64,000 nt of DNA from Nannocystis pusilla (GTDB lineage: Bacteria > Myxococcota_A > Polyangia > Nannocystales > Nannocystaceae). The translations under genes were made by a program, and so were the position numbers. How positions within the stretch are numbered: the stretch's first letter is position 1; every line of letters begins with the position of its first letter. Positions 1 through 26,092 of this stretch are shown here, one piece after another. The stretch lies in the NCBI RefSeq assembly GCF_049060185.1, contig NZ_JBMEQO010000002.1. One strand, 5' to 3'. The notes under the pieces are model-generated. The model saw only the letters and a program-made list of their open reading frames with translations, searched no databases and was not told where the DNA came from.

Positions 1-432
1 CACGACGTGCTCGCCACCAACCTGCACGGGCCGTTCTACGTCGTGCGCGCGTTCCTGCCGGCGATGCTGGCGGCCCGGTTCGGGCGGATCGTCAACATCT
101 CGTCGATCCAGCACAACGGCGCGGCCGGCCAGGCCAACTACGCCGCCAGCAAGGCCGGCCTGCACGGCTTCACCCAGGCGCTCGCCAAGGAGTACGGGCG
201 CAAGGGCATCACCGCCAACGTCGTCGTGCCGGGCTTCTTCGACACCGACATGACGCGCGAGACCATGCCGCAGGCGGCCAAGGACTACTGGCAGCAGTAC
301 TGCCCGATGCCGAAGGGGCGCATGGGCACGCTGGCCGAGCTGGCGGCGACGGTCCTGTTCCTGGCCACGGGCGGCAGCTTCATCAACGGTCAGGTCGTGC
401 CGGTCACCGGCGGCCTCGACTGGACGTACTGA
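1..432 (+). CDS. SDR-family oxidoreductase, FabG-like (3-oxoacyl-ACP reductase-like); C-terminal fragment, 5' end lies outside the window
   Basis: Translation ...NISSIQHNGAAGQANYAASKAGLHGFTQALAKEYGRKGITANVVVPGFFDTDM... carries the SDR active-site YxxxK (YAASK) context and the Rossmann C-terminal half. Stop at 430-432. Confidence 0.75.
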   Translation, partial: HDVLATNLHGPFYVVRAFLPAMLAARFGRIVNISSIQHNGAAGQANYAASKAGLHGFTQALAKEYGRKGITANVVVPGFFDTDMTRETMPQAAKDYWQQYCPMPKGRMGTLAELAATVLFLATGGSFINGQVVPVTGGLDWTY

Positions 433-445
433 GAGGAGGACGGCG

Positions 446-1687
446 ATGGCGCACCACCGGCCGCGCGTGGGCATCGAGCGGATCACGGCGTACCCGTGCA
501 CGCTCTCGCTCGACATGAAGCTGCTCGCGGAGGCGCGCGATCACGATCCGCGCCACCCGCTCGAGGAGCTGTGGGTCAGCGAGCGCTCGCTCAACCCGAC
601 GTGGGAAGATCCGGTGACGATGGCGGTCAACGCCGCGCTGCAGATCGTCCGGCCCGAGGACCGCCAGGACATCGAGCTCGTGATCGTCGGTACCGAGTCG
701 TCGGTCGACTTCGGCAAGCCGATCTCGACCTACGTGCAGCGCTACTGCGGGCTCACGGCCAACTGCCGCAACTTCGAGACCAAGCACGCCTGCTACGGCG
801 GCACCGGCGGCCTGATGATGGCGGCCCACTGGGTGGCGTCGGGCGCGGCGCCGGGCAAGAAGGCGCTGGTGGTCTGCACCGACCAGAGCCGCGTGCACCT
901 CGGCCAGCCGTGGGAGTACGTGCTCGGCGCGGCCGCGACGGCGATGCTGGTCAGCGCCCAGCCCGACGTGCTCGAGATCGACCTCGACACCTGCGGCTAC
1001 TGGACGCAGGAGATCTTCGACACCTACCGCCCGACCTCGACGAAGGAGGTCGGCCACGCCGACACCAGCCTGTACGGCTACCTCGACGCGCTCGAGGGCG
1101 CCTACGACCACTTCGTCGCCCGCTCGGGCATGGTCGACTACGACGCCGAGTTCGCGCGCCACATCTACCACGTGCCGTTCGGCGGCATGACCTTTCGGGC
1201 CCACCGGGCGCTGCTCCGCCGCGGTCCGCACGAGATGTCGCTGCGTGAGGCCAAGGCCCACTTCGAGCGCAAGTCGAAGCAGGCGCTGCGCTACAACTCG
1301 CGCTTCGGCGGCACGTACACCTCGGCGACCTTCATCGCCATGCTCGGCCTCATCGACGCCGACCCCGAGCTGCGCGCCGGCGACAAGGTCTCGATCTTCT
1401 CCTACGGCTCGGGCTCGTGCGCCGAGTTCTACCGCGCGACCGTCGGTGAGCGCGCGCGCGAGCAGGTCGCGGGCCAGCGCGTCGGCGCCGGCCTCGATCG
1501 CCGCATGCCGCTCACCATCGAGGAGTACGAGGCGCTCGAGCGCCAGCGCGCCGCCACCATCGACCAGAGCGACTACGAGGTCGACCAGTCGGGCCTGCGC
1601 GGGCTCTACGAGCGCGCCTACGCCGGCAAGGGCCGCCTCGTGCTCGACGCGGTGCGCGGCTTCCAGCGGGAGTACCGCCTGTCCTGA
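446..1687 (+). CDS. Hydroxymethylglutaryl-CoA synthase family (HMGS; PksG/MvaS-like)
   Basis: 413 aa; thiolase-fold HMGS signatures (ELVIVGTESSVDFGKP, CYGGTGG, YHVPFGG, SYGSGS). Intact ORF with GC-rich third positions. Confidence 0.85.
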   Translation: MAHHRPRVGIERITAYPCTLSLDMKLLAEARDHDPRHPLEELWVSERSLNPTWEDPVTMAVNAALQIVRPEDRQDIELVIVGTESSVDFGKPISTYVQRYCGLTANCRNFETKHACYGGTGGLMMAAHWVASGAAPGKKALVVCTDQSRVHLGQPWEYVLGAAATAMLVSAQPDVLEIDLDTCGYWTQEIFDTYRPTSTKEVGHADTSLYGYLDALEGAYDHFVARSGMVDYDAEFARHIYHVPFGGMTFRAHRALLRRGPHEMSLREAKAHFERKSKQALRYNSRFGGTYTSATFIAMLGLIDADPELRAGDKVSIFSYGSGSCAEFYRATVGERAREQVAGQRVGAGLDRRMPLTIEEYEALERQRAATIDQSDYEVDQSGLRGLYERAYAGKGRLVLDAVRGFQREYRLS

Positions 1688-1794
1688 GGCTCCGACCATG
1701 CCGCGCACGTCCCTCGCCACGCCGGCCGCGCCGCCCTCGGCGTCGTGCGGCCCGGCCGCTCGTCTTCTCGTCTCAGCACTTCGGAGGTGATCGC

Positions 1795-2547
1795 GTGCGC
1801 GTCCGCTGCGAAGAGGGCGAGCTGATCCATCGGCTGTTCCTCGGGACAGGTCCCGGAGGACATGTCGCATTGGACACCGACGGGATCGCCGCGCTGGCCG
1901 ACGCGGTCGAGCAGGCGGTCGCGGGCCCGGTGCGCGCGCTGGTGATCGCCAGCGAGGGCCCCGAGTTCTGCGCCGGCATGGACCTCGCGGCCGCGCTGCG
2001 GACCCCGTCGGCGCAGATGCGCGAGGCGATGCAGCGCTTCGCCGGCTGCCTCGAGCTGCTGGCGAGCGCGAAGCTGGCGACGATCGCGGTGGTCACCGGC
2101 GCGGCCAGCGGCGGCGGGGTCGGCCTGGCGGCCGCGTGCGACCTGGTGGTGGCGGCGCCGACGGCCACGTTCGCGCTGCCGGAGCTGCGCTACGGGCTGG
2201 TGCCGGCGGTGATCTTCCCGGCCCTCGAGGCCCGGATCGGCGCGCGGCGGACCCGGCGGCTGGCGCTCACCGGCGAGCTTGTGACCGCGGCCCAGGCCGA
2301 GCCGTGGGGCCTCGTGGACGTGGTCGCGGACGACCCGGACAAGGCGCTGCGCGGGCTCTTGCGCTCGCTGCTGCGCGCGCCCGCAGGCGGTGGCGACGCT
2401 CAAGCGGATCACCGGGCCGGCGGGGCAGGGCGGGGTGGCCCAGACCGCGGCCGACCTCGAGGACCCCGAGCTGCGGGCGGCGCTGGCGGCCCTGCTGGCC
2501 GAGGGGCAGGCGCCGCCGTGGTTCGCCAGGCTGAAAGGACAGGAATG
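1795..2547 (+). CDS. Enoyl-CoA hydratase/isomerase family, ECH1-like (crotonase fold); one frame change near 2385
   Basis: GTG start with GGAGGTGA RBS at 1783-1790. Crotonase motifs (ASEGPEFCAGMDL, GGGVGLAAACD). The C-terminal ...TLKRITGPAGQGGVAQTAADLEDPELRAALAALLAEGQAPPWFARLKGQE* is in a second frame, stop 2545-2547. Three 14-bp GGACA units sit at 1844-1885 in the 5' coding region. Confidence 0.6.
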
Positions 2548-3321
2548 AACGCGCATGTCCCAACAGACAGCCTCGTCGAGGTGACGCTCGAGCGCGACGG
2601 CGTGGCCGTGCTGACCATGCGCGACGCGGCCGGCAAGAACGCGTTCGGCCGGGCGTTCGTCGCCGTGTTGACGCGCGCGCTCGAGGAGCTCGGCCGGCGC
2701 GCCGACGTGCGCGTGGTCGTGATTGCCGGTTTGCCCGAGGTGTTCTCCGCCGGCGGCGACCGCGACGTCCTGCTCGGCCTCGCCGACGGCACGATCGCCC
2801 CGTACGACCTGCTGCTGACGCGGGCGTTGCTCGAGGTGCCGGTGCCGACGATCGCCGCGATGGCGGGGCCCGCGGTCGGCGGCGGCCTGGTGTTCGGCCT
2901 CGCCTGCGACATGGTCGTGATGGCCCGCGAGAGCCGCTACGGCGCCAATTTCATGGACCTCGGCTTCACGCCGGGGATGGGCGCGACGCGCCTCGTGCAG
3001 TTCGCGTTCGGCGAGTACGTCGGGGCCGAGATGCTGTTCGGCTCGCAGTACTTCCGCGGCGAGCAGCTGGCGGGGCGCGGCCAGGTCAACGCCGTCGTGC
3101 CGCGCGCCGAGGTGCTGCCGCGGGCGCTCGACATGGCGGCGCGGATCGCCGACAAGCCGCGGGCTGCGCTGCTGTTGCTCAAACGTGCGCTGGCGTTGCC
3201 GCGCCGACGCGCCTTCGAGGAGGCGCGCACGGTCGAGTCGATGATGCACGAGGTATGCTTCGCCGACCCGGAGACGGTGGCGCGGATCCGCACGAACTAC
3301 GGGCCAGGCCAGGGAGGATGA
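2546..3321 (+). CDS. Enoyl-CoA hydratase/isomerase family, ECH2-like
   Basis: ATG overlaps the ECH1 stop (ATGA). 258 aa crotonase fold (VVIAGLPEVFSAGGD, AAMAGPAVGGGLVFGLACD). Confidence 0.7.
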
Positions 3322-3324
3322 CGC

Positions 3325-4140
3325 TTGCTCAATGACTTCAAGGACAGGGTCGTCTTGATCACGGGCGGGACGCGCGGCATCGGCCTCGCGTGCGCGCTCG
3401 CGTTCGGGCGCCAGGGCGCGCGCACGGTGCTGACGCACCGCTGGGGCTCGGCCGACGAGGACGCGCTGAAGGCCCGCTTCGTCGCCGTCGGGGCCCCGGC
3501 GCCGCTGGTGATCGAGGCCGACGCGTCGCGCGAGGAGGACACCGACAAGCTGACCGCGCGGCTCAAGGAGGAGTGCGACGGCGTGTGGGCGTTCATCAGC
3601 AACGTCTGCGTGGTCCAGCGCGGCGAAGGCCCGGAGAAGCACACCCGGCGCGCGCTGTACAAGAGCCTCGAGTACTCGAGCTGGCCGTTCGTCGGCTACC
3701 TGCAGGCGCTGCACGCCGCGTTCGGTCGCTACCCCCGCTACGCGCTGGCGATGTCGTCCGACGGGCCCGACACGCACTACCCCGGCTACGACTACGTGGC
3801 GGTGGCCAAGGCGGTGCTCGAGACGTTCGTGCGCTACATGAGCACGCACCTGCACGAGCACGGCTGCATCGTCAACGCCCTGCGCACCCGCCAGGTCATG
3901 ACCGAGAGCTACGAGCAGATGTTCGCCGCCCAGCAGCGCGAGCTGGCGGGCAAGTTCCCCGAGTTCGCGTGCACCGTCGACGAGGTCGCCGACACGACCC
4001 TCGCGCTGTGCAGCGGGCTGTTCGACGCGATGGGCGGGCAGGTGCTGACGCTCGACCGCGGCGCGGCGTTCGTCGACAACGTCGCCACGCTCGGGCCGCG
4101 GCTCGTCGGCGACAGCGACAAGGAAGGAGCTCCGGCGTGA
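3325..4140 (+). CDS. FabI-like enoyl-[ACP] reductase / SDR
   Basis: TGGTRGIG glycine motif; HYPGYDYVAVAKAVLETFVRYM matches the FabI Y-x6-K active-site region (compare E. coli FabI YNVMGLAKASLEANVRYM). TTG start 4 bp after the ECH2 stop. Confidence 0.7.
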   Translation: MLNDFKDRVVLITGGTRGIGLACALAFGRQGARTVLTHRWGSADEDALKARFVAVGAPAPLVIEADASREEDTDKLTARLKEECDGVWAFISNVCVVQRGEGPEKHTRRALYKSLEYSSWPFVGYLQALHAAFGRYPRYALAMSSDGPDTHYPGYDYVAVAKAVLETFVRYMSTHLHEHGCIVNALRTRQVMTESYEQMFAAQQRELAGKFPEFACTVDEVADTTLALCSGLFDAMGGQVLTLDRGAAFVDNVATLGPRLVGDSDKEGAPA

Positions 4141-5017
4141 TCCTCCGCAACGACCTCAAGGGCAAGGCAGTCATCGTCACCGGCGGGACGGCGGGCATCG
4201 GCCTGGCGACCGGCCTGCTGTTCGGCAAGTACGGCGCGCACGTGTACCTGACGCACCGCTGGGGCTCGGCCGACGAGGACGAGCTGCGGGCCCGCTTCGA
4301 AGCCGCGGGCGCGCCGGCGCCGACGATCGTCGAGGCTGACGCGTCGCAGGACGAGGACACCGAGGCGCTGATGGAGGCGGTCAAGCGCGACCACGACGCC
4401 GTGTTCGCGCTGATCAGCAACGTGTCGTTCGCCCACGTCAGCAAGTCGCACGAGGACCTCGACAAGAAGAGCTTCCTGCGCAGCCTCGGCTACAGCGCGT
4501 GGCCGTTCGTCGGCTACCTGCAGGCCATCCGCGAGACCTTCGGCCGCTGGCCGCGCTACGCGGTGGGAATGTCGTCGCGCGGGCCGGAGTACTTCCTCCG
4601 GGCTACGACTTCGTGGCCGCGAGCAAGACCGTGATGGAGACCTTCTGTCGCTACCTCACGGCAGATCTGCTCAGTGAGGATGTTCGCATCAACATCCTGC
4701 GCGCGAACCCGGTCGAGACTGCATCGCTGGAGGCCACCTTCGGGCCCGACTTCGTGCCGTTCTGCAAGAAGTACTACTCGGAAGGCTGGTTCATCGACCC
4801 CGACGAGGTCGCGGCCGCGGCGCTGGCCCTCTGCAGCGGCCTCATGGACGGCGTCAAGGGGCAGATTCTGCTACTGGACAGGGGCCTCGGTTTCGCCGAC
4901 AACGTCGTTCGCCTGTTTTCGGCGCGCGAGCGCCACGGGCTGAGTTTTGACCTTCGCTTCCTGCGAGATTCGCTGCGGGCAACCTGCACCGCGCCCACCA
5001 AGGAGAACCGAGAATGA
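4137..5017 (+). CDS. Second FabI-like enoyl-[ACP] reductase paralog (tandem duplicate); frame change near 4592
   Basis: GTG start overlaps the upstream stop (GTGA), RBS AAGGAAGGA. Paralogous to 3325-4140 (GGTAGIG, PGYDFVAASKTVMETFCRYL). One missing C in a CCC run joins the two frames. Confidence 0.6.
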
Positions 5018-5280
5018 GCACCCGCGATGATGTCTTGGCCGTCGTCAAGCGCCACCTCGTGGACACCGTCGAAGGGATCGATGCGGCCCAGGTCGACCCC
5101 GCCAAGTCGATGAAGGACCTCGGCGCCAACAGCCTCGACATCGTCGAGGTCGTCTCCTGCAGCATGCGCGAGCTCAAGGTGAAGATCCCCCGCGCCGAGC
5201 TCAACAAGTTGACGAACATCAACGAGCTCGTCGACCTGCTGCACAAGACGGTGCAAGAGAAGCAGGCCGCCGCGTCCTGA
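5014..5280 (+). CDS. Acyl carrier protein
   Basis: 88 aa. DLGANSLDIVEV phosphopantetheine-attachment motif (D-S-L). ATGA overlap with the upstream gene. Confidence 0.8.
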   Translation: MSTRDDVLAVVKRHLVDTVEGIDAAQVDPAKSMKDLGANSLDIVEVVSCSMRELKVKIPRAELNKLTNINELVDLLHKTVQEKQAAAS

Positions 5281-5459
5281 GCGCCGTCGGCGTGTGTCCC
5301 CACGGACAGGGTCCGGGGACATGACCGATCGGCCAGACACGTTCGCGCCCGCGCTGCGCTCGCCGCAGCCCGGGCGCGCTCGTCGTACCTGGACCTCGCG
5401 CGTCGCTTAGCCGAGTGGCTCGAGCGCAGTCGTGCGCGGCGCTGGCAGCTGGGGTGCAC

Positions 5460-5935
5460 CAGGCCTTCGGGGCAGGTGTGGACTTCGGGCGGAGAACGCG
5501 GCGAGGCGGTACGCCTGGCCTTCGGGTCAGGTGTAGACTCGTTCGCTAGGCAGCCGGAGGACCAGCGCCGCGGCGAACCGGCGCACCTAGGCCCGAGGCC
5601 AGGTGCGGCCTTCGGGCGCCGCAGGCAGCGTTTCGGCGTTACATCTGGCCTGAGGGGCAGGTGCGGACTTCAGGCGGGTCAGCGCTGCGGCGAGGATGCG
5701 CCTGCCTTTGGGTCAGGTGCGGACTCTGTCGGGGTAGCCGGCGGACTGGCGCCGCGGTGAACCGACGCACCAGGTTTGAGGCCAGGTGCGGCCCTCGGGC
5801 GCGGCAGTCGGCGGGCAGCGCTGCGCCGTCACACTTTGCCTGAGGGGCAGGTGCGGACTTCGGGCGCGCTGCGGCGAGGATGCGCCCTGGCCTTGGGCCA
5901 GGTACGGAGCTCGGTTGAGCCCGCGGGTCGGCGCG
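5460..5935. repeat. Imperfect higher-order tandem repeat, about 186 bp unit, about 2.5 copies, each of three sub-units beginning CAGGTG(C/T)GG
   Basis: CAGGTGYGGAC recurs at about 5476, 5531, 5603, 5663, 5716, 5783, 5848, 5899. Units at 5476, 5663 and 5848 are near-identical. Lies between convergent gene ends. Confidence 0.7.
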
Positions 5936-5941
5936 CAGTCA

Positions 5942-6759
5942 TCACCTGACTTGCAGTTCAGGCGGGCGGAGTCGGCGGACCAGCGCCTCGGCGCGGCGCC
6001 AGGCCGACACGACCAGGAGCGCCCACACGTTGAGCCCGAGCGCGACCGCGAGTGCAGCTGTCCAGAAGGACAGGTCGAGCCGGACGGCCGCGGCGGCGGT
6101 GGCGACGTAGAGCAGCGCGAGGTGGGTGTCGTGGCTCAGCGGTGCTGCCATGCGCAGGGGCGGGGCCAGCAGCGAGCGGGCCGCGCCGGGGCGGGGCGGG
6201 GGCCGGTGTGCTCCGGCCCGAGCAGCGCGGCGGCGATGTCGTGGAACACAGCGGGGCCGAGCCCGCGGGACAGCGCGGCCACCGAGGGCCGCGGCGAGGC
6301 CGGCGCTGCGTCGCTGCCTCCGCCGGTCAGGTCGCGGAAGCGGCGTCGCAGCTCGGCGTGGAGCCCGACGTGGATCAGCGCGCTGACCAGCGCCACCGAC
6401 GCGAGGGTGCAGGCCCACGGGTTGGCGGGCGCGGCTCGCAGCGTCAGCGCGACCCAGAAGGCGGCGCCGATCGCAAACTCGAGCGTGCCGGCCTCGGCCT
6501 CCGCGGCGCCGGCGACGAGGCGGCGACAACGGCTGGCGACGGTGAACGCGAACAACAGCCAGGCGGGGAAGATCCAGTCGACGCCGCTCGGCGCGGCCAG
6601 CAGCACGGCGACGGCGCCGGTGAGGCCGACCACCAGTCCGGCGAGGGTGAGCAGCTCGACGCTCGGCGCCGGTCGCACCCGCTCGAGGACCCACGCTGCG
6701 AGCGGCCGATGGAGGTGGCGATCGAGAGTTCCCTCGGTGATCGGATCGTCGTCGGCCAT
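5942..6759 (-). CDS. Hypothetical polytopic membrane protein (two frames; probable frame change near 6200)
   Basis: N-terminal part from ATG 6759 (MADDDPITEG...LLTLAGLVVGLTGAVAVLLAA...WLLFAFTV). The C-terminal hydrophobic part continues in a second frame (LALLYVATAAAAVRLDLSFWTAALAVALGLNVWALLVV), stop 5942. Confidence 0.4.
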
Positions 6760-6822
6760 CGCCTCGGAGGGTGGGCGGGGCCTCGGGCCCTGTCAAGCGA
6801 GCCCCGGCGCCGCAGAAACCGC

Positions 6823-7048
6823 TCAGGAGCGCGGCTTGGCGTTGTCCGGGACGACGAGCCCCTGCGCGTCGATGGTCTTCCAGAAGGCGGGCCAGCGCGA
6901 GATCTCGCGCAGCGTGGGCAGCACGTCGACGGGGTTGTGCGGGTACGTGCGGCGCAGGAACAGCACCGCGGCCTCGGCCGTCGGCGCCTCGAGGAAGTGC
7001 GCCTCGCCGGGCGGGTACTCGTAGCGGAACTTCAGGAGGGGCGGGGTC
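6823..7048 (-). CDS. Hypothetical small protein (about 75 aa)
   Basis: GTG start overlaps the upstream gene stop. GC-rich third positions. VTPPLLKFRYEYPPGEAHFLEAPTAEAAVLFLRRTYPHNPVDVLPTLREISRWPAFWKTIDAQGLVVPDNAKPRS. Confidence 0.35.
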
Positions 7049-7652
7049 ACGGGGTGGGCTTCCGGTGGGTATCCCACAGCACCTCGGGGACGGCGAAGGC
7101 GTGGGCCGCGGCGCGGGCGACGACGAAGAACCAGTCGCTCAGGCGGTTGATGTAGCGGACGGCCTCGCCGCGGACCGGCTCGACGCGGGCGAGCGCGACG
7201 ACGCTGCGCTCGGCGCGGCGGCACACGGTGCGCGCGAGGTGGGCCCAGGCGCCGAGCGGCCCGCCGCCCGGCAGGATGAAGCTGCGCAGCGGCGGCAGGT
7301 CGGCGTTCCACGCGTCGAGCTCGTGCTCGAGGCGCGTGACGTCGGCCTCCTCGACCTTGAGCGGCGCCTTGCCTTCGGTCGCGCCGGGCGTCGCCAGCTC
7401 GGCGCCGAGGTCGAACAGCTCTTGCTGGATCCGCGCCAGCGAGGCGTCGAGTGCGGCCAGGAACTCGCGGCGCTCCCCGGGCTCGCCCACGCGGGAGAGC
7501 TCGACGCGCAGCACGCCGAGCACCGCGTTGAGCTCGTCGACCTCGCCGTAGGCGGCGACCCGCGGGGCGTCCTTGCCGACGGTGTCGCCGCTGGCGAGCA
7601 TCGTGTCGCCGCGGTCACCGAACTTCGTGTAGACCTTGCTGATGTAGACCAC
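7047..7652 (-). CDS. ATP:cob(I)alamin adenosyltransferase, PduO-type
   Basis: YTKFGDRGDTMLASGDTVGKDAPRVAAYGEVDELNAVLG N-terminus and the overall 200-aa PduO/MMAB architecture. Confidence 0.8.
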   Translation of the reverse strand: MVYISKVYTKFGDRGDTMLASGDTVGKDAPRVAAYGEVDELNAVLGVLRVELSRVGEPGERREFLAALDASLARIQQELFDLGAELATPGATEGKAPLKVEEADVTRLEHELDAWNADLPPLRSFILPGGGPLGAWAHLARTVCRRAERSVVALARVEPVRGEAVRYINRLSDWFFVVARAAAHAFAVPEVLWDTHRKPTP

Positions 7653-7707
7653 GGGGCTGTCCGATCGGCCAGGTTCGTACGGCCAGGTGCTCGAGAGCAG
7701 GTGCCCA

Positions 7708-7732
7708 GGGACATGCCCGTGAGGACATGTCC
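7708..7732. repeat. Palindrome pair GGGACATGCC / GGACATGTCC, 15 bp apart
   Basis: Intergenic, 3' of the roadblock gene and 5' of the adenosyltransferase gene. Confidence 0.6.
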
Positions 7733-7747
7733 CTCAGAACAGCCGAC

Positions 7748-8263
7748 TCAGCGACCCTTCAGCGCGGCGATCAGGCGCGGCTGGAGCTCGGGGATGATGA
7801 CGAACACCCACCCGAGCTGCGCCTTGACGCCGTCGACGAGGATCGCCCAGCGATGGCGTTCGTCGAGCTCGATGACGAAGATCAGGAGGCCGTTGTCGCC
7901 TTCGATGATGAACTTGTTGATGCCCTTGGCGAGGGCATCCTCCGAGCGGGTCAGCGCGTTGTGCAGCTGCTCGGACAGGCGGTTGAACATGGCGCACGCC
8001 TTGGGCGCCGAGTTGATGCCCGCGAGCGACATGCCCGAGGCCTTGCTGATGATGTCGACGCTGATGAGGCCGCCCATGAGGTGGTCGTCGAGCTCCTCGA
8101 GGATGGCCTTCACGACCTTGAGGTCCATGTCTGACAGCTCCTTGTCGCGCGCTGCAACGTTGGGGGCGGCCGCGTAGGCCGGCGTCGGTGGGGTGATGGG
8201 CAGCGGCGGAAGTGGCGGGACGGTGACCGGCGCAGCTCGCTGCGGCTTCTCGATCACCGGCAC
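7748..8263 (-). CDS. Roadblock/LC7 domain protein (MglB-like)
   Basis: 171 aa. C-terminal roadblock fold pattern (GLLIFVIELDERHRWAILVDGVKAQLGWV). Pro-rich N-terminus. Confidence 0.7.
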   Translation of the reverse strand: MPVIEKPQRAAPVTVPPLPPLPITPPTPAYAAAPNVAARDKELSDMDLKVVKAILEELDDHLMGGLISVDIISKASGMSLAGINSAPKACAMFNRLSEQLHNALTRSEDALAKGINKFIIEGDNGLLIFVIELDERHRWAILVDGVKAQLGWVFVIIPELQPRLIAALKGR

Positions 8264-8754
8264 CGGCGGAGGGAGGGCGGCGTCGCGGTGCGTGGCGGTG
8301 GCTCGCTCCGCGGCGGCGGCTCGCTACGCGGCGGCTCGCTGCGTGGCGGCGGCTCGTTGCGCGAAGCCTCGTCGCGCTGACGAGCTCGGTCCATCAACAA
8401 CGCGACGATCGAGGTGTGTCGCACCGTCTGCGGGCAGTTCTCGGGCAACTGCGAAGACGAGACGCTGCCCTCGCGCCAGTCGAGGATCGTGTTGACGGCG
8501 TCGTCACCCTGGGCCGCGCCGGTCTCGGCGTGGACGAGGTTGCCGCCCTGGAAAAACATCGCGCCGACGCCATGCGGCGACTCGACGGACAGCTTGATCG
8601 ACATGCGCGATGTCTGCGCAAGTTGCAGGATGTCCCAAAGTTCAAATCCACCGATCTGGGCGATCGTGGTTGCCATTATTCGCCTCCCCGTGGCCCACGT
8701 GGGCCGCGACCGCGATCGGAGGGGCAGCTCCCGCCGATGTTGGTCTGGGTACAA
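8254..8754 (-). CDS. DUF4388-like domain protein with C-terminal SEPPPR tandem repeats
   Basis: IGGFELWDILQLAQTSRMSIKLSV...GAMFFQGGNLVHAETGAAQGDDAVNTILDWREGSV fits the DUF4388 pattern. The tail repeats EPPPRSEPP(P)R are encoded by an 18-bp DNA repeat at 8270-8345. Confidence 0.6.
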   Translation of the reverse strand: MYPDQHRRELPLRSRSRPTWATGRRIMATTIAQIGGFELWDILQLAQTSRMSIKLSVESPHGVGAMFFQGGNLVHAETGAAQGDDAVNTILDWREGSVSSSQLPENCPQTVRHTSIVALLMDRARQRDEASRNEPPPRSEPPRSEPPPRSEPPPRTATPPSLRRCR

Positions 8755-9059
8755 TACCGCGCCTGCTCATATCTTTGGGACAGGTTCTTCACGCGAGCCT
8801 GCGGCGACGCCATCTCAGCCCAGGTCCGTGGGGCCGTAACGGCGTCGCGTGTGTCCCGTCTCACTCGGATTACGAGGTTTGGCGTCCGAACTAGCATCCG
8901 CGCTCGCCGGGCAAGCCTGCGGTCAAGGCTTTCGCCGGCCACGCTAACACCAGCTTCGGAAAAAGCTACGTTGGAGACACCGGACACGCTGCGCGCTGAG
9001 TGCGCAGCGCCGCACCGGTCTCTCGGGACCTCGCCGCCCGGCCCTGCTCGCATCCCGCA

Positions 9060-10350
9060 TCACCGCAGCAGGGCGTAGGCCGACGTCACCAGCAAGTCCG
9101 CGATCGCCAGGGGCATCGCGGCTCGCTCGAGGAAGAAGAGAGCGGCGCGCGCACGCGAGCCGGTGGCCGACGCGTGCAGCCGCTGCACGAACCACACGAC
9201 CGCAGCGATCTTCGCCGCCGCCACGACTGCGCCGATGAACAGCACGAGGCCGTGGCCGCTGCCGGCGAGCGCCGCCGCGGGCAGACCACCGCCGAGGAAA
9301 CAGGCGACGAACGCCGCCGCGAAGGCGAGCCGCTCGAGCCGTCCTGCCGGCGGGGCGGCCGCGACCGCGAGGGCGACGGCAGCGGCGATCGGTTGCACGA
9401 AGATTCCCCAGGCGGGGGATCGCAGCACCGCCGACGAGCCCCGCTGCTTGCTCCCCACGAGTCGCCGTGGATCGAGGGTGCCAAAGGCCAGCAATGGACC
9501 GGCGAATGCGGCGGCGAGGGCGAGGTCGCGCGACGCGAGGCGGCGGGCCAGCGCAGCCCGGTCGACGAGGCGACCGAGACCGGCGAGCACGAGGGCGACG
9601 AGATAGACGAGCCAGCCTTCGCCGACGGCGATCAGCGACAGCGAAGCACCTCCCCGACCCGCGGCGCACTGCTCGACGTCCGCGGCGGAGAGGCTGCTGC
9701 CGACGCCGTCGAAGCAAAGGCCCGGACCGAACGGGAACAGCGCCAGGACGGCCACCACCGGCAGCCACGCGGTCCAGTTCAGCCGGGTGCGGCGCGTGGA
9801 GATCCACGCCAGCGCGACGAGCGCGAGCGCCAGGGCGGTGCGGATCGCCGTGCGCCGCAGATCGCTCGCTAGATCGGGCGGCTCCCAGCGGAGCTCGACG
9901 ATCTGGGGCGCCTCTCCCGCCGCAAAGAGGAGGCGCGCGCTGCCGGAGCGGGAGGCGCCAGTGCGATCGAAGTGGTCGCGGTCGACGCGGAGGCGCAGGC
10001 TCACGGCTCCGCCGGCAGCGATCTCCCGCGGGTACTCGCGGTTCTCGATCGAGAAGGCGCCCCAGTCGGGGGTGCGAGTATCGAAGCGGATCCGCGTCAA
10101 CGGGACGGGCACCGCGCCGTGATTCACGAGCCGCAGCTCGAGACGCTCCGCCGCCGGCGTGAACACGAGGGTTCCCGGTTCGGCGCGCACGCCCGTCGGC
10201 GGTACGCCGCAGCCGAGCGCGAGCGCGAAGAAGAGGACGCAAGGCGTGGCGGGCGAGGTCGCGGCGCGGAGGAAGCTGCGACGAGGAAGCGAGCTCGCGT
10301 GCGCGACGCGGGCGAGTGGGAGCGGGGACAGTCGCGGCACGTCGTCCACA
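9060..10350 (-). CDS. Hypothetical polytopic membrane protein (start uncertain; may extend into the upstream 78-bp repeats)
   Basis: Multiple hydrophobic helices (WLPVVAVLALFPFG, LVYLVALVLAGLG, LAFAAAFVACFLGGGLPAAAL, VLFIGAVVAAAKIAAVVWF). Lipoprotein-like LALGCG near the N-terminus. Confidence 0.5.
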
Positions 10351-10384
10351 GACGCGGCCTCGGACGAGGAGCTCGCGCTTACAT

Positions 10385-11060
10385 CGAAGCTGCGAGGAAG
10401 TAGAAGCGGCGATGCGACCGCGGAGCTCGCCAGGCTTTCGTCGAGACCACGCATGACCGAAGCGGACGGAAGCGGCGATGCGACGTCGGGCGGGGCGATC
10501 GCGCTTGCTTCGAGGTAGCGAGGGAGTGGAAGCGGCGACGCGGCCTCTTGCGAGGAGCACGCCAATGTCTCGTCGAGACCACGCACGGCCGAAGCGGACG
10601 GAAACGGCGACGCGACCTCAAACCGGGCGCTCGCGCTTTCGTCGAGGTAGCGAGGAAGTACGAGCGGAGACGCGGCCTCGCGCCGGGCGCTCGCGCTTGC
10701 GACGAGGTTACGAGGAAGTGGAAGCGGCGATGCGACCTCGGGCGAGGAGCTCGCCAGCGTCTCGTCGAGACCACGCATGACCGAAGCGGAGGGTCGCGGC
10801 GACGCGACCTCAAGCCGAGTGCTCGCGCGTGCTTCGGAGCTGCGAAGAAAAGAGGCGGCGAAACGACCGCGAGCGAGGAGCTCGCAGACATCTCGTCGAC
10901 GCCTGGCAGTGCCGACGCGGGCGGGTGCAGCGGGAAGTCTTGCCCCGCGAGATCGAGCGAGGAACTCGCACGAATCTCGAAGCCACGAAGCTGCGACTGG
11001 AACTCGCGCGACACGTCGTCCGGAACCGCGACGTCGCCGACGCTTCGGGCCGAATCATTC
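10385..11060. repeat. Tandem repeat, about 78 bp unit (26 codons, in-frame), about 8 copies
   Basis: Recurring CGAGGAAGTNGAAGCGGCGATGCGACCTCGGGCGAGGAGCTCGCCAG..TCTCGTCGAGACCACGCATGACCGAAGCGGA. All three minus-strand frames are open across the region. Confidence 0.75.
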
Positions 11061-11139
11061 GAGGCGCGCAGCGCGACGGCGCCGCTCGCCGACGCGGGCG
11101 CAGGCGAGGCGGCGGCGCGCGGGCGGATCATGGCGCGCG

Positions 11140-11474
11140 CGTCAGCGAGGGCCACGCAATCGCGGTCGCAAGGCCCAGCAGACCGAGGCCGGCGGCGCTG
11201 ACCCAAGGGCAGGTCCTTCCGGACATGTCGTGCTGGACAGGCAGACCGCGGCGGTCGGCGCGAACAGGACCAGGGCCAGCGCGAGCGCGAAGCCGAGGCC
11301 GGCGAGCGCGAGGAGGCCGCCGGTGTCGACGGGCTGACGCGGGCGCAGCTGAACCAGGCTCTCGCCGGCGTCGGGCGCGGCCTGTTGCCTCGCGCGCGCG
11401 CGGACCAGGCTGGCGAGGACCCCGATGAGCCCGACCGCTGCGACGAGCGGCAGGTAGTCGAGCAGGGGGCCCAT
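11140..11474 (-). CDS. Hypothetical small membrane protein (possibly the N-terminus of a larger repeat-containing protein)
   Basis: Start right after the macro gene stop. Two hydrophobic segments (LPLVAAVGLIGVLASLV, LLALAGLGFALALALVLFA). The 3' end is unclear. Confidence 0.3.
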
Positions 11475-12002
11475 CTACGGGATGTTCCCTTCCATGGCCA
11501 GCTCGAACACCTCGACGTCGTCGGCGTCCTTGGCCATGAGGAAGGCGCGGAGCGGGCGCTCGCCGCGGTAGACCTTGAGCTCGCTGTGGATGGCGCGAGC
11601 GGCCTCCTCGGCCGGGATCCCGAGCTCGAACGCACCCATCAACGGGACGGCGACGCTCGTGAAGCCCTTGACCTTGCAGGCCACCAACACGGCCGCGGTG
11701 GCGCGCAGGACGTCTTCGACCTGGACGCGACCGCCGGGGCGATCGGTGTTGGGCACGTGGATGAGGTACTTCGCCTTCATCTTGCCCGCGGGCGTCACGA
11801 ACGCGGCGCCGATCGCCAGCGGGGTGTGCTCCTTCACCATCGCCTCGACCTCGCGACCGGCAAGGTCGCGGATCTTGTTGGCCGGGAAGTGACTCATCAC
11901 GCCCTCGGAGTTGGTCGGACAGACGAAGGCGTCGACCGCGATCTGCTCCCAGGGCAAGGTCGAGATCTGGATCTCGACGGACTCATTGATGTCGGTGGCC
12001 AC
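11475..12002 (-). CDS. Macro domain protein (ADP-ribose binding/processing family)
   Basis: 175 aa. VDAFVCPTNSEGVMSHFP...IGAAFVTPAG...YLIHVP resembles the macro-domain fold pattern. Confidence 0.55.
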   Translation of the reverse strand: MATDINESVEIQISTLPWEQIAVDAFVCPTNSEGVMSHFPANKIRDLAGREVEAMVKEHTPLAIGAAFVTPAGKMKAKYLIHVPNTDRPGGRVQVEDVLRATAAVLVACKVKGFTSVAVPLMGAFELGIPAEEAARAIHSELKVYRGERPLRAFLMAKDADDVEVFELAMEGNIP

Positions 12003-15517: not shown

Positions 15518-16203
15518 GTGACGCCCGTGCGCGCTGTCGGCGCGGGACGGCGCGAGGTCGAGGAGATGCCGGGCAGCGGCGGCGAAGGCGGGGCGCCGAA
15601 GACCGCGGCGGCCGAGGCGGAACCGACGGCGCCGCGCCGCGATCCGCAGGTCGAGGTCGCCGAGGCGCTGGCCGACGAACGCTCGCGCCGCTGGGAGACG
15701 CACATCCGCGGGGCGGCGCGGCTGTATCAGCTGCCGGAGTCGCTGGTGCGCGCGGTGATTCACACCGAGAGCAACTACTATCCCGGGGCGGTCAGCAGCA
15801 CCGGGGCGATGGGGCTGATGCAGCTGATGCCGTCGACTGCGCGCTTCCTCGGGGTCCAGCAGCCGTTCGACCCGCGCCAGAGCATCTACGGCGGGGCCAA
15901 GTTCCTGCGCCTCCTGGCCAACCGGTTCGGCGGCGACATGGTGCTGGTGGCGGCCGGTTACTTCTCGGGCGCCGGGGCGGTGCAGAAGTACGGCGGGGTA
16001 CCGCCACACCCGGGGTGCGTGCGTACGTGAAGGCGGTCCTGCGCCGGTTCTATGCGTACGAGCGGCTGCTTCAGGACGGGGCCGGCGGGGCGAGCCCGCG
16101 CGGTCGATCGCCGGGCCGTGAGCCGCCGCCGATCTCGCAGGGCCTCGCGTCTTGTCTTGGACCTGGCCCGAGCTTCGCGGTAGGCTCCCGCGGCTTTCTG
16201 TGA
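15518..16203 (+). CDS. Lytic transglycosylase, SLT domain (frame change near 16010)
   Basis: AVIHTESNYYPGAVSSTGAMGLMQLMPSTARFLG in frame 1. The C-terminal ...RAYVKAVLRRFYAYERLLQD is in frame 3 after a CCCGGGG run. Confidence 0.75.
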
Positions 16204-16247
16204 AGAGGTACGAAGGCTTCCGCCGGGAGATCCTGAATCTCCCCAAC

Positions 16248-16799
16248 ATGATCACCATCGGCCGGGTGTTCCTCATCCCGCCGGTGCTCATGCTGATCGA
16301 CAAGACCGATCCGTGGCGCTGCGTGCTCGCGTCGCTGCTGTTCACGGTCGCGTCGCTGCTCGACCTGATCGACGGCTGGCTGGCCCGCCGCTCCGGCCTG
16401 GTGACGGTGTTCGGCAAGTTCGTCGACCCGCTCGCCGACAAGATCATGGTGGCGGCGGTGCTGATCTACCTGGTGATGGACGACCGCGCGCCCGCCTGGC
16501 TGGTGGTGCTGCTGCTGACCCGCGAGTTCTACATCAACGGCCTGCGCTCGCTCGCCAGCTCGGAGAACATCATCATCGCCGCCAGCGCCGGCGGTAAGGC
16601 GAAGACGGCGTTCCAGCTGACGGGCATCTCGTTCCTGCTGATGCACTACCGCTATCGCCTGCCGTTCCTCGAGGAGGCGCTCGACTTCCATCGGGTCGGA
16701 TTGGTGCTGCTCGGGCTGTCGGTGTTCGTGTCGATCAAGAGCGCGGTCGACTACACGTTCGGCTTCCGCGAGGCGCTGGCGCAGAAGAACGCCGAGTGA
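16248..16799 (+). CDS. pgsA: CDP-diacylglycerol--glycerol-3-phosphate 3-phosphatidyltransferase
   Basis: CDP-alcohol phosphatidyltransferase motif DGWLARRSGLVTVFGKFVDPLADK. Multi-TM protein. The ORF also carries an upstream alternative start at 16152. Confidence 0.85.
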   Translation: MITIGRVFLIPPVLMLIDKTDPWRCVLASLLFTVASLLDLIDGWLARRSGLVTVFGKFVDPLADKIMVAAVLIYLVMDDRAPAWLVVLLLTREFYINGLRSLASSENIIIAASAGGKAKTAFQLTGISFLLMHYRYRLPFLEEALDFHRVGLVLLGLSVFVSIKSAVDYTFGFREALAQKNAE

Positions 16800-18359: not shown

Positions 18360-18944
18360 TCAGGTGGCGGGCTTTGCCTCGGGTGTATTCTCTTTTGTTT
18401 CCGGCGGTTGCGCGTGGAACATCAAGTACGGGATGAGCAGTAGGACGCCGACGACGAGGGCGATGTCGGCGACGTTGAAGTTCGGCCAGCACAGACCACG
18501 AGGGTTCCACGGGGAGCACACGCGGATGAAGTCGACCACGCCGTGGGTGAGGTTGCCGTGGGGGTCGGTGTCCTGGCGCAACAGGCGGTCGTGCATGTTG
18601 CCGAGGGCGCCGCCGATGATGCAGCCGATGGCGAAGAAGCCGTAGAGGCGGTCGGTCGGCAGCTTGCGGACGAGGGCGGCCATGTAGACCACCGTCACGA
18701 GGGTGACGACGATGAACAGGGGGCGCGAGAAGTCCTGGCCGCGCAGGAAGCCGAAGGCGGAGCCGGTGTTGAAGCTGTAGGACCAGTGGAACCAGTTGCC
18801 GATCGCGGCAATCTGCCGGTTCGGCGGCCGGAGGTTGTCCCAGGCCCAGCTCTTGGTCACGAGATCGAGGATCAGAAACACCGCGGCTGCGGACGCGGTG
18901 ACGAGGATCGGCCGGAGCCGGTTCGATGCTGGCGTGTCGCTCAT
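18360..18944 (-). CDS. lspA: Lipoprotein signal peptidase II
   Basis: FNTGSAFGF, GGALGNMHDRL, VVDFI, NFNVADIALV, all LspA hallmarks. ATG MSDTPAS at about 18944. Confidence 0.85.
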   Translation of the reverse strand: MSDTPASNRLRPILVTASAAAVFLILDLVTKSWAWDNLRPPNRQIAAIGNWFHWSYSFNTGSAFGFLRGQDFSRPLFIVVTLVTVVYMAALVRKLPTDRLYGFFAIGCIIGGALGNMHDRLLRQDTDPHGNLTHGVVDFIRVCSPWNPRGLCWPNFNVADIALVVGVLLLIPYLMFHAQPPETKENTPEAKPAT

Positions 18945-19139
18945 GTAGGGCCGAAAAACCTGGCCAGTGTACCCGAGGCACCAGGGCGAGCAAGCGCAGC
19001 CGCCGCTGCGCCGCGGGCCGCAGAGACGGTCGGAAGGGCAGCCGGGCAGGGTTGCGGGTCGGTCGCGCGGTCGCCGCTGGGCGCTCTGGCGGTCGAACGG
19101 CGGCGACCCGGGGCGCAGAAGCACGAGGCAGGTCCATCT

Positions 19140-19564: not shown

Positions 19565-20101
19565 TCAGGCGGAAGTCCGGTTGTCGGCGGCGGCCTCGGT
19601 GCGCGGCAGCACGAGCAGGAACAGCAGCACGCCCGCGACCAGGACGGCGTCGGCGATGTTGAAGGCCGGCCAGGTCTTGCCGCCCCACAGGTAGACGACG
19701 ATGAAGTCGACCACGCAGTAGTCGCCGGCGTAGACCCGGACCAGGCGGTCGTGCAGGTTGCCGAGGGCGCCGCCGGCGATCAGGCCGATGGCGATGAAGG
19801 CGGCCCGGCTGGTGGTCGGCAAGGTCCGCGCGAGGTGGACGAGGTAGCCGACGGCGGCCAGGGTGATGACGATGAAGAAGTAGCGCGCCCAGTCGACGTC
19901 GTTGAGGAACCCGAAGGCAGAGCCGGGATTGCAGGCGAAGTCGAAGTGCAGCAGCTTGTCGCTGACCTTCCAGGCGGCCTGGTCTCGCAGGTTGTTCCAG
20001 ACCCACGCCTTGCTCCAAAGGTCGAGGCCGAGGCTGAGACCGGCGATCACCGCTGCGAGGGCGATCCGCGATCCGCGTGTGGGTTCGGGTAGGGCGGCCA
20101 T
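19565..20101 (-). CDS. lspA: Lipoprotein signal peptidase II, second tandem paralog
   Basis: NPGSAFGF, GGALGNLHDRL, VVDFIVVY, FNIADAVLV. About 179 aa from ATG MAALPEP. Confidence 0.8.
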   Translation of the reverse strand: MAALPEPTRGSRIALAAVIAGLSLGLDLWSKAWVWNNLRDQAAWKVSDKLLHFDFACNPGSAFGFLNDVDWARYFFIVITLAAVGYLVHLARTLPTTSRAAFIAIGLIAGGALGNLHDRLVRVYAGDYCVVDFIVVYLWGGKTWPAFNIADAVLVAGVLLFLLVLPRTEAAADNRTSA

Positions 20102-20528
20102 GGCGGGCGCGGAGCATACCAGGGTCGCGCCCGCAGTGAACCCGTTCGCGAGGCGAGATCCGTGACGTCGACCTCGCACGCACGCCGCGCCCCTGAAGCC
20201 GCGGCTCCAGAGACCTCGAAGGGCGGCGCTCGACGTACGCGACGGTTCGTCCCGTTCGCGCTTGCTCCGTGGCGATCTCGGGAGGACAGGCGATGTTCTG
20301 CTGCGCGCCGACCGGCGAGCTTCACGGCAGGACGCGAACTGTCGGAGCGGAGGATGCTTCGAGCGACGCAGGGTCAGTCGGAGCAGGCGCCGTCAGACGA
20401 GGCGCACGGGCCTCATCTCGCAGTTGCTCGACGCGGAGCCGCTGGCCTGCTGTGCCTTCAGTCGCCGCAGGGCAGGCCGTAGGGAGCAACTCTGCTCGAA
20501 CCGCCGTCGTGCTTCGTGCGGCGAGTCT

Positions 20529-21469: not shown

Positions 21470-22350
21470 TCAGGGGCTCGCCGGGGTGTGAGAGGGATGC
21501 CGGAGGGCCACGCGCAGCAGCGTCTTCAGGCGCGCGTTGCCGACCCGCTTGCCGATCGCGGCCGGACCCGCGGGCCGCTCCCACCGCGGGGGCGGCCGTC
21601 CGGCGAGGGCGGCGAGGCGAGCGAAGATCTCGCGCCGCGGGGTGTGGTCGTCGTCGACGACGTTGATGACGCCGCGCTCGTCCGGCGCGAGGGTCAAGGC
21701 GGCGAGGACGGCTTGCACCGCGTCCTCGCAGTGGATGAGGTTGGTCGGCTGCATACCATCGCCCGCGAGGACTGCGTCGTCGCCAGCGCCGCGATAGAGG
21801 CGGAACAGTTCGCGACCCGGACCGTAGAGGCCGCCGAGACGGAGGATCGTCCACGGCACCGCGTGGCGCGTGCAGGTGTCGCGCACCAGCTCCTCGGCCT
21901 CGCGCTGCACGCGGCCCCGCGGCTCGTCGGGCCACTCGAGGCAGTCGTCGTCGAGCCAGCCGTCGCGATCGGGCAGGGCCGAGGTGGATGAGGTGTAGAC
22001 GAGGCGGGTGAGCGGGAGGGTGACCGCCGCGGCGAGCAGGCGCCGGGTGCCCTCGACGTAGAGCTCGCGGCGGTCCTGCTGCTTGCCGGGGGCGTAGCAG
22101 ACGACCAGCGCGCGCGCGCCGGCGAGTACCGCGGCGATGTCGGCCGGAGCGAGCGCGGCGACGTCGAGCGGGCGGAGCTCGATGCCCTCCGGGACATGTC
22201 TGTTGGGCCATGTCCCGGAGCGCGTGGTCGCAAGGACAGGCGGATCGCCAGCGCCCCCGGTCGCCGCGAGTGCGGCGGCCACGGGGGCGCCGAGGAAGCC
22301 GGCGCCGACGACGGCGACCGGGCGAGCGAGAGGGACGCGCCGCTGGGCAC
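21470..22350 (-). CDS. NAD(P)-dependent epimerase/dehydratase family protein (N-terminus needs a frame change near 22315)
   Basis: VAVVGAGFLGAPVAAAL Rossmann motif upstream of the first in-frame start. GTG (MPSGAS) at about 22350 is in another frame. Contains the inverted repeat CCGGGACATG(N10)CATGTCCCGG at 22189-22219, encoding SGTWPNRHVPE. Confidence 0.6.
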
Positions 22351-22361
22351 GCGCGGCTCGC

Positions 22362-24017: not shown

Positions 24018-24075
24018 GGGACATGTCTGTCACGACATGTCCGCCGCGACATGTCCTTCAGGACTCGCGGAAGCT
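24018..24075. repeat. Phased array of four 14-bp units (GACATGTCTGTCAC / GACATGTCCGCCGC / GACATGTCCTTCAG / GACTCGCGGAAGCT)
   Basis: Exact 14-bp phasing, between convergent gene ends (24017 plus strand, 24058 minus strand). Confidence 0.75.
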
Positions 24076-25873: not shown

Positions 25874-26092
25874 CATCCGGCTCGAAGAAGTCTCAGGCGG
25901 CGCGGGCCCTGAAGCAAGTCGCACGCGAGAAGCCGCGGCGAGCGAGGTTCTGTGCGGCTCAGGACGCTGCGGTCCGGACCGCGCGCCGGGGCGGTACCAC
26001 TGCCGCGGCCGCGGCATTTCGAGCGGCGCTCGCATGCCCTCGCGCGCCCGGGCGCCGGCGCGAGGGCGACGCGAAGCGACCCCGGGGCGAGG

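Follow-up and report, generated by a model that had tools for sequence, protein, structure and literature searches.

What is a beta-branching cassette doing in a bacterial genome where no polyketide synthase (PKS) stands beside it? The question is raised by positions 1-5280 of a 64,000-nucleotide stretch of DNA from Nannocystis pusilla (contig NZ_JBMEQO010000002.1 of assembly GCF_049060185.1), taken at its full length and called the window in what follows, where a gene for an enzyme resembling 3-hydroxy-3-methylglutaryl (HMG)-acyl carrier protein synthase (HMGS) is followed by the pair ECH1 and ECH2, by two putative enoyl reductases (ER1, ER2) and by a discrete acyl carrier protein (ACP). Judged from gene order, this segment is the 3′ two-thirds of an 11-gene operon, AOS-AT-DH-KS-KR-HMGS-ECH1-ECH2-ER1-ER2-ACP, which begins with an alpha-oxoamine synthase (AOS), an acyltransferase (AT), a dehydratase (DH), a ketosynthase (KS) and a ketoreductase (KR). 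We propose, with a probability of about 0.58, that the operon specifies a type II fatty acid synthase (FAS)-like system equipped with a beta-branching module, which would make a methyl-branched acyl-ACP, and that its AOS, which resembles serine palmitoyltransferase (Spt), would convert this chain into a sphingoid-type base.

Genes were called in this window, 71% in G+C, with a third-position GC (GC3) frame plot and Pfam. Seven co-directional genes occupy 1-5280, separated by gaps of at most 14 nt or overlapping, except for one 107-nt spacer, and they are followed by a stem-loop:

1..432, plus strand: FabG-like 3-oxoacyl-ACP reductase (KR), C-terminal part; Pfam adh_short_C2, 7e-31.
446..1687, plus strand: HMG-ACP synthase-like enzyme (HMGS), 413 aa; Pfam HMG_CoA_synt_N and HMG_CoA_synt_C.
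1795..2548, plus strand: ECH1, dehydratase of the beta-branching cassette; Pfam ECH_1/ECH_2; frame broken as assembled.
2545..3321, plus strand: ECH2, decarboxylase of the beta-branching cassette; Pfam ECH_1.
3325..4140, plus strand: ER1, short-chain dehydrogenase/reductase, putative enoyl-ACP reductase; Pfam adh_short_C2, 7e-26; Y-x6-K.
4137..5017 as assembled, plus strand: ER2, paralogue of ER1; Pfam matches on both halves.
5014..5280, plus strand: discrete acyl carrier protein (ACP), 88 aa; Pfam PP-binding, 2e-9.
5282..5334, plus strand: stem-loop directly 3′ of the ACP stop codon; minimum free energy -31.2 kcal/mol, z = -2.6.

The KR gene is cut by the window edge, its first ~104 codons lying outside. 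The ECH1/ECH2 pair matches Pfam ECH_1 at 1e-76, and the end of ECH1 at 2548 overlaps the start codon of ECH2 (ATGA). ER2 starts with a GTG that overlaps the ER1 stop, an RBS-like (ribosome-binding site) AAGGAAGGAG lying upstream, and its true stop is probably at 4947. The core of the stem-loop, GTCCCC...GGGGAC, is kept in four other Nannocystis genomes and has no T-run; it is probably the terminator of the operon. Frame plot and Pfam thus agree with the seven-gene inventory, partial KR included, of a preliminary description of this DNA made from its letters alone; the gene ends given there had to be moved, ECH1 stopping at 2548 and ER2 beginning at the GTG at 4137.

The flank ahead of KR was read not in the source genome but in six related Nannocystis genomes, 94-98% identical to it in nucleotide sequence across the cassette. 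All six, among them the complete genome of N. punicea FL3, carry on the plus strand AOS, AT, DH and KS. The first of these encodes a 424-aa alpha-oxoamine synthase of the class I/II aminotransferase fold (Pfam Aminotran_1_2, 2e-48); the AT is FabD-like (Acyl_transf_1), the DH FabA/FabZ-like and the KS FabF-like. Divergent to AOS, these relatives have a gene of the NAD-dependent epimerase/3beta-HSD family and a UGPase gene. Because the six genomes share one arrangement, we assign the upstream genes to the source genome as well. No modular PKS was found within 10 kb upstream in any of the six, and Pfam reveals no PKS or non-ribosomal peptide synthetase (NRPS) gene anywhere in the 64-kb window. 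The preliminary description had seen no PKS gene in the window and read the HMGS/ECH1/ECH2/ACP cassette as possibly unattached to a modular trans-acyltransferase (trans-AT) PKS; the flanks bear this out. It had also looked to the upstream flank either for condensing-enzyme genes or for a canonical trans-AT PKS: a condensing KS gene is there, no canonical trans-AT PKS is, and what the flank holds corresponds to neither outcome as it was listed.

How far does this arrangement extend? A degenerate-pattern scan of GTDB genomes, built from the HMGS alignment, gave 80 loci with 10-kb flanks, the synteny of which was tested by tblastn with the 11 N. punicea proteins and confirmed on Pfam-annotated contigs. 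The 11-gene set is syntenic across the 80 loci and complete where the contig is long enough, some lineages being without AT, ECH1 or one ER; KS, KR, DH, HMGS, ECH2, an ER, ACP and AOS are there in every version. The hosts are Nannocystis, Enhygromyxa, Plesiocystis and other Polyangia, Planctomycetota, Nitrospinota, Vicinamibacteria (Acidobacteriota), a Chthoniobacter metagenome-assembled genome (MAG; Verrucomicrobiota), an Armatimonadota MAG and about twenty Spirochaete genomes. The Spirochaete variant has a single ER, with AOS-DH placed 3′ of ACP. One Nitrospinota form is without ECH1 and AT, has a phosphopantetheinyl transferase (PPTase) gene and is flanked by MMPL, MlaA and LolA-like genes. 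In this variant, seen on a Nitrospinota-like pair of contigs (L083/L084:7388-20718), a 240-aa unannotated open reading frame (ORF) follows AOS; the flanks hold two MMPL transporters, MlaA and a TP_0789/LolA-like protein, and these neighbours suggest export of a lipid to the outer membrane.

The identity of the branching enzymes comes next. Among PDB chains, the HMGS is closest to CurD (276 bits), PksG (238) and Myxococcus xanthus MvaS (228), the lead of the first two over the third being modest, and the MvaS enzymes of Enterococcus and Staphylococcus score 179-186. Against TIGR01835, the MvaS equivalog, it reaches 258 bits, below the cutoff of 360. Its C-terminal extension (to residue 410-411) is aligned by CurD, PksG and VirC-like matches only, and such an extension is present in the HMGS VirC relative to the HMG-CoA synthases (HMGCSs) (PMC11522927). 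By these comparisons the enzyme is of the PksG/CurD type and not an MvaS equivalog, as had been surmised from the outset. Residues Glu84, Cys116 and His242 are invariant in the HMGS alignment (A1). The protein couples its HMGS-type C-terminal extension with a compact beta6-beta7 loop (residues ~146-165), 10 residues shorter than in CurD and PksG, which we take to be HMGCS-like by comparison with MvaS sequences. Since insertions in this loop have been linked to larger substrates (PMC11522927), the short loop may be taken as a faint indication that the acceptor is small, acetoacetyl for example; according to the same paper, an AlphaFold2 model of VirC was incompatible with binding of its native substrates. 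ECH1 has PRK07112 as its best NCBIfam match (124 bits, cutoff 250). ECH2 exceeds the cutoff of PRK07110 (276 bits against 215) and, among PDB chains, matches PksI with 155 bits and the ECH2 of CurF with 141, generic crotonases remaining at or below 87; it is predicted to be a decarboxylase of the PksI/CurF type, and the decarboxylating role first given to it holds good.

The remaining enzymes form a complete reductive set. Every one of the 83 KS copies aligned, 82 of them taken from the loci and one a reference, keeps the Cys-His-His signature, by which KS is a condensing enzyme and not a Cys-to-Ser decarboxylase. Classical PKS cassettes include a decarboxylating KS in which the active-site Cys has become Ser (PksF/CurC type), and in them the acceptor ACP of the modular PKS bears a flagging Trp. 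The best NCBIfam model of our KS is PRK07103 (359 bits, cutoff 445), presumably the PksF-type model; that of the ACP, which has its serine within an NSLD motif and no tryptophan at all, is PRK07117 (60.8 bits, cutoff 79), which we equate with AcpK. The KR, followed in a full-length orthologue (L003:9240-9983), has the classical Y-x3-K spacing, and HFPGDPVYPG in DH is the FabZ motif. In the AT (L003:6353-7363), GLSLGE replaces the canonical GHSLGE at the nucleophilic serine, while the FabD-type Arg and a downstream His are retained. Both ERs have the Y-x6-K spacing (YDYVAVAK in ER1), which recurs in 114 of the 120 sequences aligned, three of these being references and 117 homologues taken from the 80 loci; FabL and FabI are among their best NCBIfam and PDB matches, all of them weak. 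The two FabI-type Y-x6-K reductases announced by the preliminary description are therefore present as far as this spacing goes, their activity being predicted from motifs. A housekeeping type II FAS was considered and set aside: all components find their best or near-best matches in Fab families and all fall below the equivalog cutoffs (in bits, cutoffs in brackets: FabD 143 (261), FabF 327 (494), FabG 241 (298; TIGR01830, with the full-length KR orthologue), FabZ 80 (113), FabL 72-79 (328)). Because every FAS-like component lies below its housekeeping cutoff, the operon is, on these scores, a separate dedicated type II FAS-like set and not the FAS of the cell itself.

Where, then, does the chain go? 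AOS is the enzyme that would release it, and its NCBIfam scores (BioF 329 bits, KBL 304, Spt equivalogs 232-298 with cutoffs of 500-670) reach none of the respective cutoffs; its matches to BioF, KBL and Spt chains of the PDB are equally even. The pyridoxal phosphate (PLP) lysine lies in TFSKAF, and in pairwise comparison the protein is 32% identical to the Spt of Escherichia coli BL21 (E = 2e-59). Non-core ORFs of the 80 loci were clustered to find recurrent neighbours, and one was found that crosses phyla: a protein of ~380 aa with a weak GNAT match, present in 27 of the 80 loci and placed, in Spirochaetes, immediately upstream of AT on the same strand. It is designated bCerS-like here, bCerS being, as we assume, Caulobacter CC_1154. 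No NCBIfam model recognises it. Compared with full-length YghO of BL21, the Spirochaete protein (L068) is 36% identical (E = 2e-79) and that of a Nannocystaceae locus (L020) 34% (E = 1e-73). According to PMC9386255, the BL21 gene yghO (ECD_02850) is homologous to Caulobacter CC_1154, whose acyl-CoA N-acyltransferase product is needed to make dihydroceramide.

The sphingolipid locus of BL21 has the order yghO, acyl-AMP ligase, epimerase, ACP, spt, and several of these genes reappear around our operon. The divergent epimerase-family gene of Nannocystis is 30% identical to the epimerase of the BL21 cluster (E = 2e-30), and Enhygromyxa and Plesiocystis have epimerase, bCerS and AOS in this order. 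In four Polyangia loci (L009, L010, L013 and L019), bCerS comes directly after the cluster ACP, and behind it lie a second ACP and an acyl-AMP ligase of the AasR type, 37% identical to BL21 AasR. In Nannocystis the YghO homologue is found at a separate locus, not beside the cluster; in N. punicea a trio of bCerS, ACP and AasR-type ligase genes lies at L087:10001-13279 (CP114040, about 12.19-12.21 Mb). This second ACP and its ligase may supply the N-acyl chain through bCerS, feed Spt or prime the KS. The cluster ACP, this second Nannocystis ACP and BL21 AcpR are too divergent for orthology to be assigned by pairwise comparison. Co-location of Spt-like, bCerS and CerR genes serves as a criterion for sphingolipid producers (PMC11334938), and the three homologues are found together in some of our lineages.

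Gene content, homologies, conservation and intactness have been demonstrated, and from them a chemistry may be drawn, inferred at every step. The FabD-like AT would put malonate on the dedicated ACP, and the Cys-His-His KS would condense and extend the chain. At one beta-keto stage, HMGS would add acetate, acetoacetyl-ACP being the most economical candidate acceptor; dehydration by ECH1 and decarboxylation by ECH2 would follow, and one of the Y-x6-K reductases would saturate the 3-methyl-enoyl-ACP to leave a methyl branch, which would be an iso terminus if the HMGS acceptor is acetoacetyl-ACP. Ordinary reductive cycles would then be carried out by KR, DH and the second ER. AOS would free the chain by decarboxylative Claisen condensation with an amino acid, assumed by analogy to be serine, giving a 3-keto long-chain base. 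Finally, the YghO/bCerS-type N-acyltransferase would acylate this base and the CerR-like epimerase-family reductase would reduce it, the expected result being a lipid of the ceramide type whose sphingoid base bears a methyl branch. Where the canonical bacterial ceramide pathway has an acyl-ACP synthetase to supply Spt, there would thus be a synthase that makes a branched chain de novo.

Set beside the ceramide pathway of Caulobacter crescentus and E. coli BL21(DE3) (PMC9386255, PMC11087976, PMC11334938), our system has in common an AOS with a dedicated ACP, full-length YghO/bCerS homologues (34-36%), an epimerase-family reductase (30% to BL21) and, in some loci and in the Nannocystis genome, an AasR-type ligase with a second ACP. 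The two differ in that AasR loads a ready-made fatty acid onto AcpR, whereas the operon described here would build and branch its chain de novo, AT, KS, KR, DH, two ERs and HMGS/ECH1/ECH2 sharing the operon with an AOS that scores below the Spt cutoffs. A comparable logic is met with in fungi: in the PKS and AOS routes to fumonisin (Fum8), myriocin and sphingofungin, a dedicated synthase makes a methyl-branched reduced chain that an AOS releases with an amino acid. Those routes differ in using eukaryotic type I iterative PKSs and methyls derived from S-adenosylmethionine (SAM), and their products are toxins and not membrane lipids.

Several points weigh against our proposal. The upstream genes are deduced from relatives and not from the source genome itself. 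The membership of AOS in the Spt clade and its amino acid substrate are deduced from gene context, no Spt cutoff being reached. The epimerase match is one at the level of a large family, the best NCBIfam match of this protein being HpnA. The bCerS-like gene is adjacent in only 27 of the 80 loci; in the genus Nannocystis, hence in the source organism, it lies elsewhere in the genome, and within 10 kb it was not seen in the loci of Planctomycetota (except one Phycisphaeraceae locus, L031), Nitrospinota and Vicinamibacteria. A decarboxylating KS of the Cys-to-Ser kind being absent from the cassette, an evident source for the acetyl-ACP donor is missing. The branched chain may end as the long-chain base or as the N-acyl group, and the searchable literature held no lipid chemistry for these organisms.

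A broader claim can be made, tentatively and at slightly less than even odds: that we are dealing with a widespread new route to sphingolipids, in which an HMG-ACP synthase module builds a methyl-branched long-chain base de novo from acetate and malonate. Such a route would yield an iso terminus or, should the module act repeatedly, isoprenoid-like branches, with no need of leucine, of branched-chain keto acid dehydrogenase (BCKAD) or of SAM. Its carriers would be Nannocystaceae, Spirochaetes, Planctomycetota, Nitrospinota, Acidobacteriota and members of further phyla.

Among other explanations, the one that survives best holds that the product is a small diffusible alpha-aminoketone or alpha-hydroxyketone (a signal of the CqsA/LqsA type, a pyrazine precursor) or another specialised hybrid of polyketide and amino acid, in place of a membrane sphingolipid. 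CqsA-type autoinducer synthases do belong to the AOS family, our AOS scores 200 bits against their model, its assignment to Spt is unproven and bCerS is not adjacent in most loci outside myxobacteria and spirochaetes. Of the models for the main AOS subfamilies, however, that of CqsA gives the lowest score; the complete reductive loop, with its two ERs, suggests a chain that is long and saturated, and neighbours such as bCerS, the CerR-like gene, AasR-ACP and the MMPL/MlaA/LolA-like genes point to a membrane lipid; high conservation over at least seven phyla would also be unusual for a specialised metabolite. We regard this explanation as unlikely.

Somewhat less probable still is the idea of the preliminary description, that the genes are an ACP-bound parallel of the Myxococcus MvaS/Aib route and supply isovaleryl-ACP as a starter for bulk iso-branched fatty acids. 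HMGS, ECH1, ECH2, an ER and an ACP provide exactly the chemistry needed for it. The logic is that of the alternative isovaleryl-CoA pathway of M. xanthus (MvaS, LiuC, AibA/B, AibC), which leads from acetoacetyl to HMG, 3-methylglutaconyl, 3-methylcrotonyl and isovaleryl thioesters. That pathway works with CoA thioesters, an MvaS-type HMGS and a decarboxylase resembling glutaconate CoA-transferase, whereas here the HMGS falls short of the MvaS cutoff (258 against 360), decarboxylation would fall to an ECH2 and an ACP gene is part of the operon; no CoA-transferase-like gene was found in the operon by Pfam, over the window and the flank of the relatives. The passage from acetoacetyl-ACP through HMG-ACP and 3-methylcrotonyl-ACP to isovaleryl-ACP is plausible as inferred chemistry, the short beta6-beta7 loop of the HMGS, which fits a small acceptor such as acetoacetyl (PMC11522927), lending it some slight support. 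For a mere supply of starters, however, a KS, KR, DH and AT of its own and a chain-releasing AOS would be superfluous, and the genes that accompany the operon are bCerS and CerR-like ones, not those of the fab or bkd kind. The first steps of this route may hold, then, as part of the sphingoid-base synthesis that we favour; the chain appears to end in a dedicated amino-lipid and not in the general fatty acid pool, and on this point the original suggestion is not supported.

That the genes are an ordinary beta-branching cassette acting in trans for a modular (trans-AT) PKS encoded elsewhere is highly improbable: HMGS, ECH2 and ACP do have their best matches in proteins of the PksG/CurD, PksI/CurF and AcpK types, but a modular PKS is missing both from the 10 kb upstream in the six Nannocystis genomes and from the 58 kb of the window that follow the cassette, a single locus of the 80 (L078 ~18744, minus strand, ~4 kb from the cluster) shows in its flank a KS motif of the type I PKS kind (VDTACSSAL), the KS has the condensing Cys-His-His and not the Cys-to-Ser change, and the set is kept with AOS in PKS-poor organisms such as Spirochaetes. 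With the cassettes of bacillaene (PksC/AcpK/PksF/G/H/I) and curacin (CurD/CurE/CurF-ECH2), our operon shares the C-terminal extension of HMGS, the ECH1/ECH2 pair, a decarboxylase of the PksI/CurF type, a discrete ACP and a FabD-like AT. Unlike them, it lacks a modular PKS, a decarboxylating KS of the Cys-to-Ser kind and an acceptor ACP flagged by Trp; its HMGS loop is 10 residues shorter than in CurD and PksG, and an AOS and a full reductive loop accompany its cassette. One cited precedent, the fogacin system, resembles it in placing an HMGS cassette among discrete type II enzymes and not on an assembly line. Fogacin reportedly is an aromatic polyketide. It comes from Actinoplanes missouriensis and a type II PKS that has beta-alkylation machinery (Sato et al. 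2019, reference 12 of PMC11522927), which by the title of that work has two KS-CLF pairs; our operon has a single FabF-like KS, full reduction and release by AOS.

Could the cassette simply be decaying, ECH1 and ER2 being pseudogenes? The preliminary description had noticed that both are frame-changed in the sequence as given, and so they are: ECH1 switches frame near 2372-2380 through a 2-nt deletion as assembled, and ER2 is shifted by a 1-nt deletion at 4597, while another at 4944 removes its stop and leads to read-on to 5017. Alignment tells another story. The bases missing at 2372-2380 and 4597 are present in all six related Nannocystis genomes, that at 4944 in five of them, the sixth (L002, another long-read assembly) having the same lesion; ER2 is uninterrupted in L001, L003 and L022. 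When the window was compared with at least three relatives, 12 private non-triplet indels were counted in 10.3 kb, all 12 of them deletions and none an insertion, mostly in homopolymer runs or short repeats, at ~1.2 per kb and across neighbouring genes too; examples within 1-11700 are those at 5967, 6186, 8270, 8929, 8959, 9413, 9452 and 11204. The matching genome, that of Nannocystis sp. MIELM, was produced by Guppy basecalling, Flye assembly and medaka correction, and its count of 14,925 coding sequences (CDS) is inflated in comparison with the 11,265 of a sister isolate (PMC12224551). Because the lesions are private, all deletions and mostly in homopolymers, the relatives being intact, the frame changes are almost certainly Nanopore deletion errors of the assembly. 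After repair, ER2 differs from its L001 orthologue by 8 codons, 8 synonymous and 0 amino acid-changing, ECH1 by 15 synonymous and 3 amino acid-changing codons, and the seven repaired genes in total by 62 synonymous and 22 amino acid-changing differences. Since these differences are mostly synonymous, purifying selection is, by the codon evidence, acting on intact genes, and the cassette with its repaired genes is predicted to be functional. We consider decay a very remote prospect, and the earlier suspicion of it can be dropped. It follows from the quality of this Nanopore-only assembly that apparent pseudogenes anywhere in it are suspect and should not be taken as decay.

In full-text literature, outside the coverage of which most subscription journals lie, we found no report linking an HMGS cassette with bacterial sphingolipid genes, nor of sphingolipids in Nannocystaceae. 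The known bacterial pathway for sphingolipids draws its chain from the general fatty acid pool. Bacterial sphingolipids have lately been recognised as far commoner than once believed (PMC11334938). If the synthesis of a branched sphingoid base proposed here is true, beta-branching HMGS cassettes, seen as a device of polyketide assembly lines, would serve conserved membrane-lipid metabolism too, and there would be an ACP-bound, acetate-derived route to branched sphingoid bases that is independent of the catabolism of branched-chain amino acids. The HMGS clade together with AOS would then make a compact genetic marker, tying unusual branched long-chain bases of environmental lipidomes to their producers. 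Cultured carriers, Nannocystis exedens, Plesiocystis pacifica and Enhygromyxa salina, allow direct testing.

The remainder of the 64-kb window is of a housekeeping nature, with genes for a cobalamin adenosyltransferase, CarD, a flavoprotein, a CDP-alcohol phosphatidyltransferase, two LspA paralogues, sucC, mdh, a Ser/Thr kinase and others. Long ORFs of high GC3 without a Pfam match lie at 5786-7024 (plus strand), 9060-11054 (minus), 32910-34136 (plus) and 53799-55112 (minus); the first has an unusually high second-position GC and overlaps a minus-strand ORF, and it may be no gene. Two adjacent paralogous genes for signal peptidase II (LspA) occupy 18360-19139 and 19565-20392 on the minus strand. 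Lipid-related genes, encoding the CDP-alcohol phosphatidyltransferase, two epimerase-family proteins and a PlsC-type acyltransferase, are found 11-21 kb downstream of the operon, at 16122-16799 (plus strand), 21470-22393 (minus) and 24058-26092 (minus).

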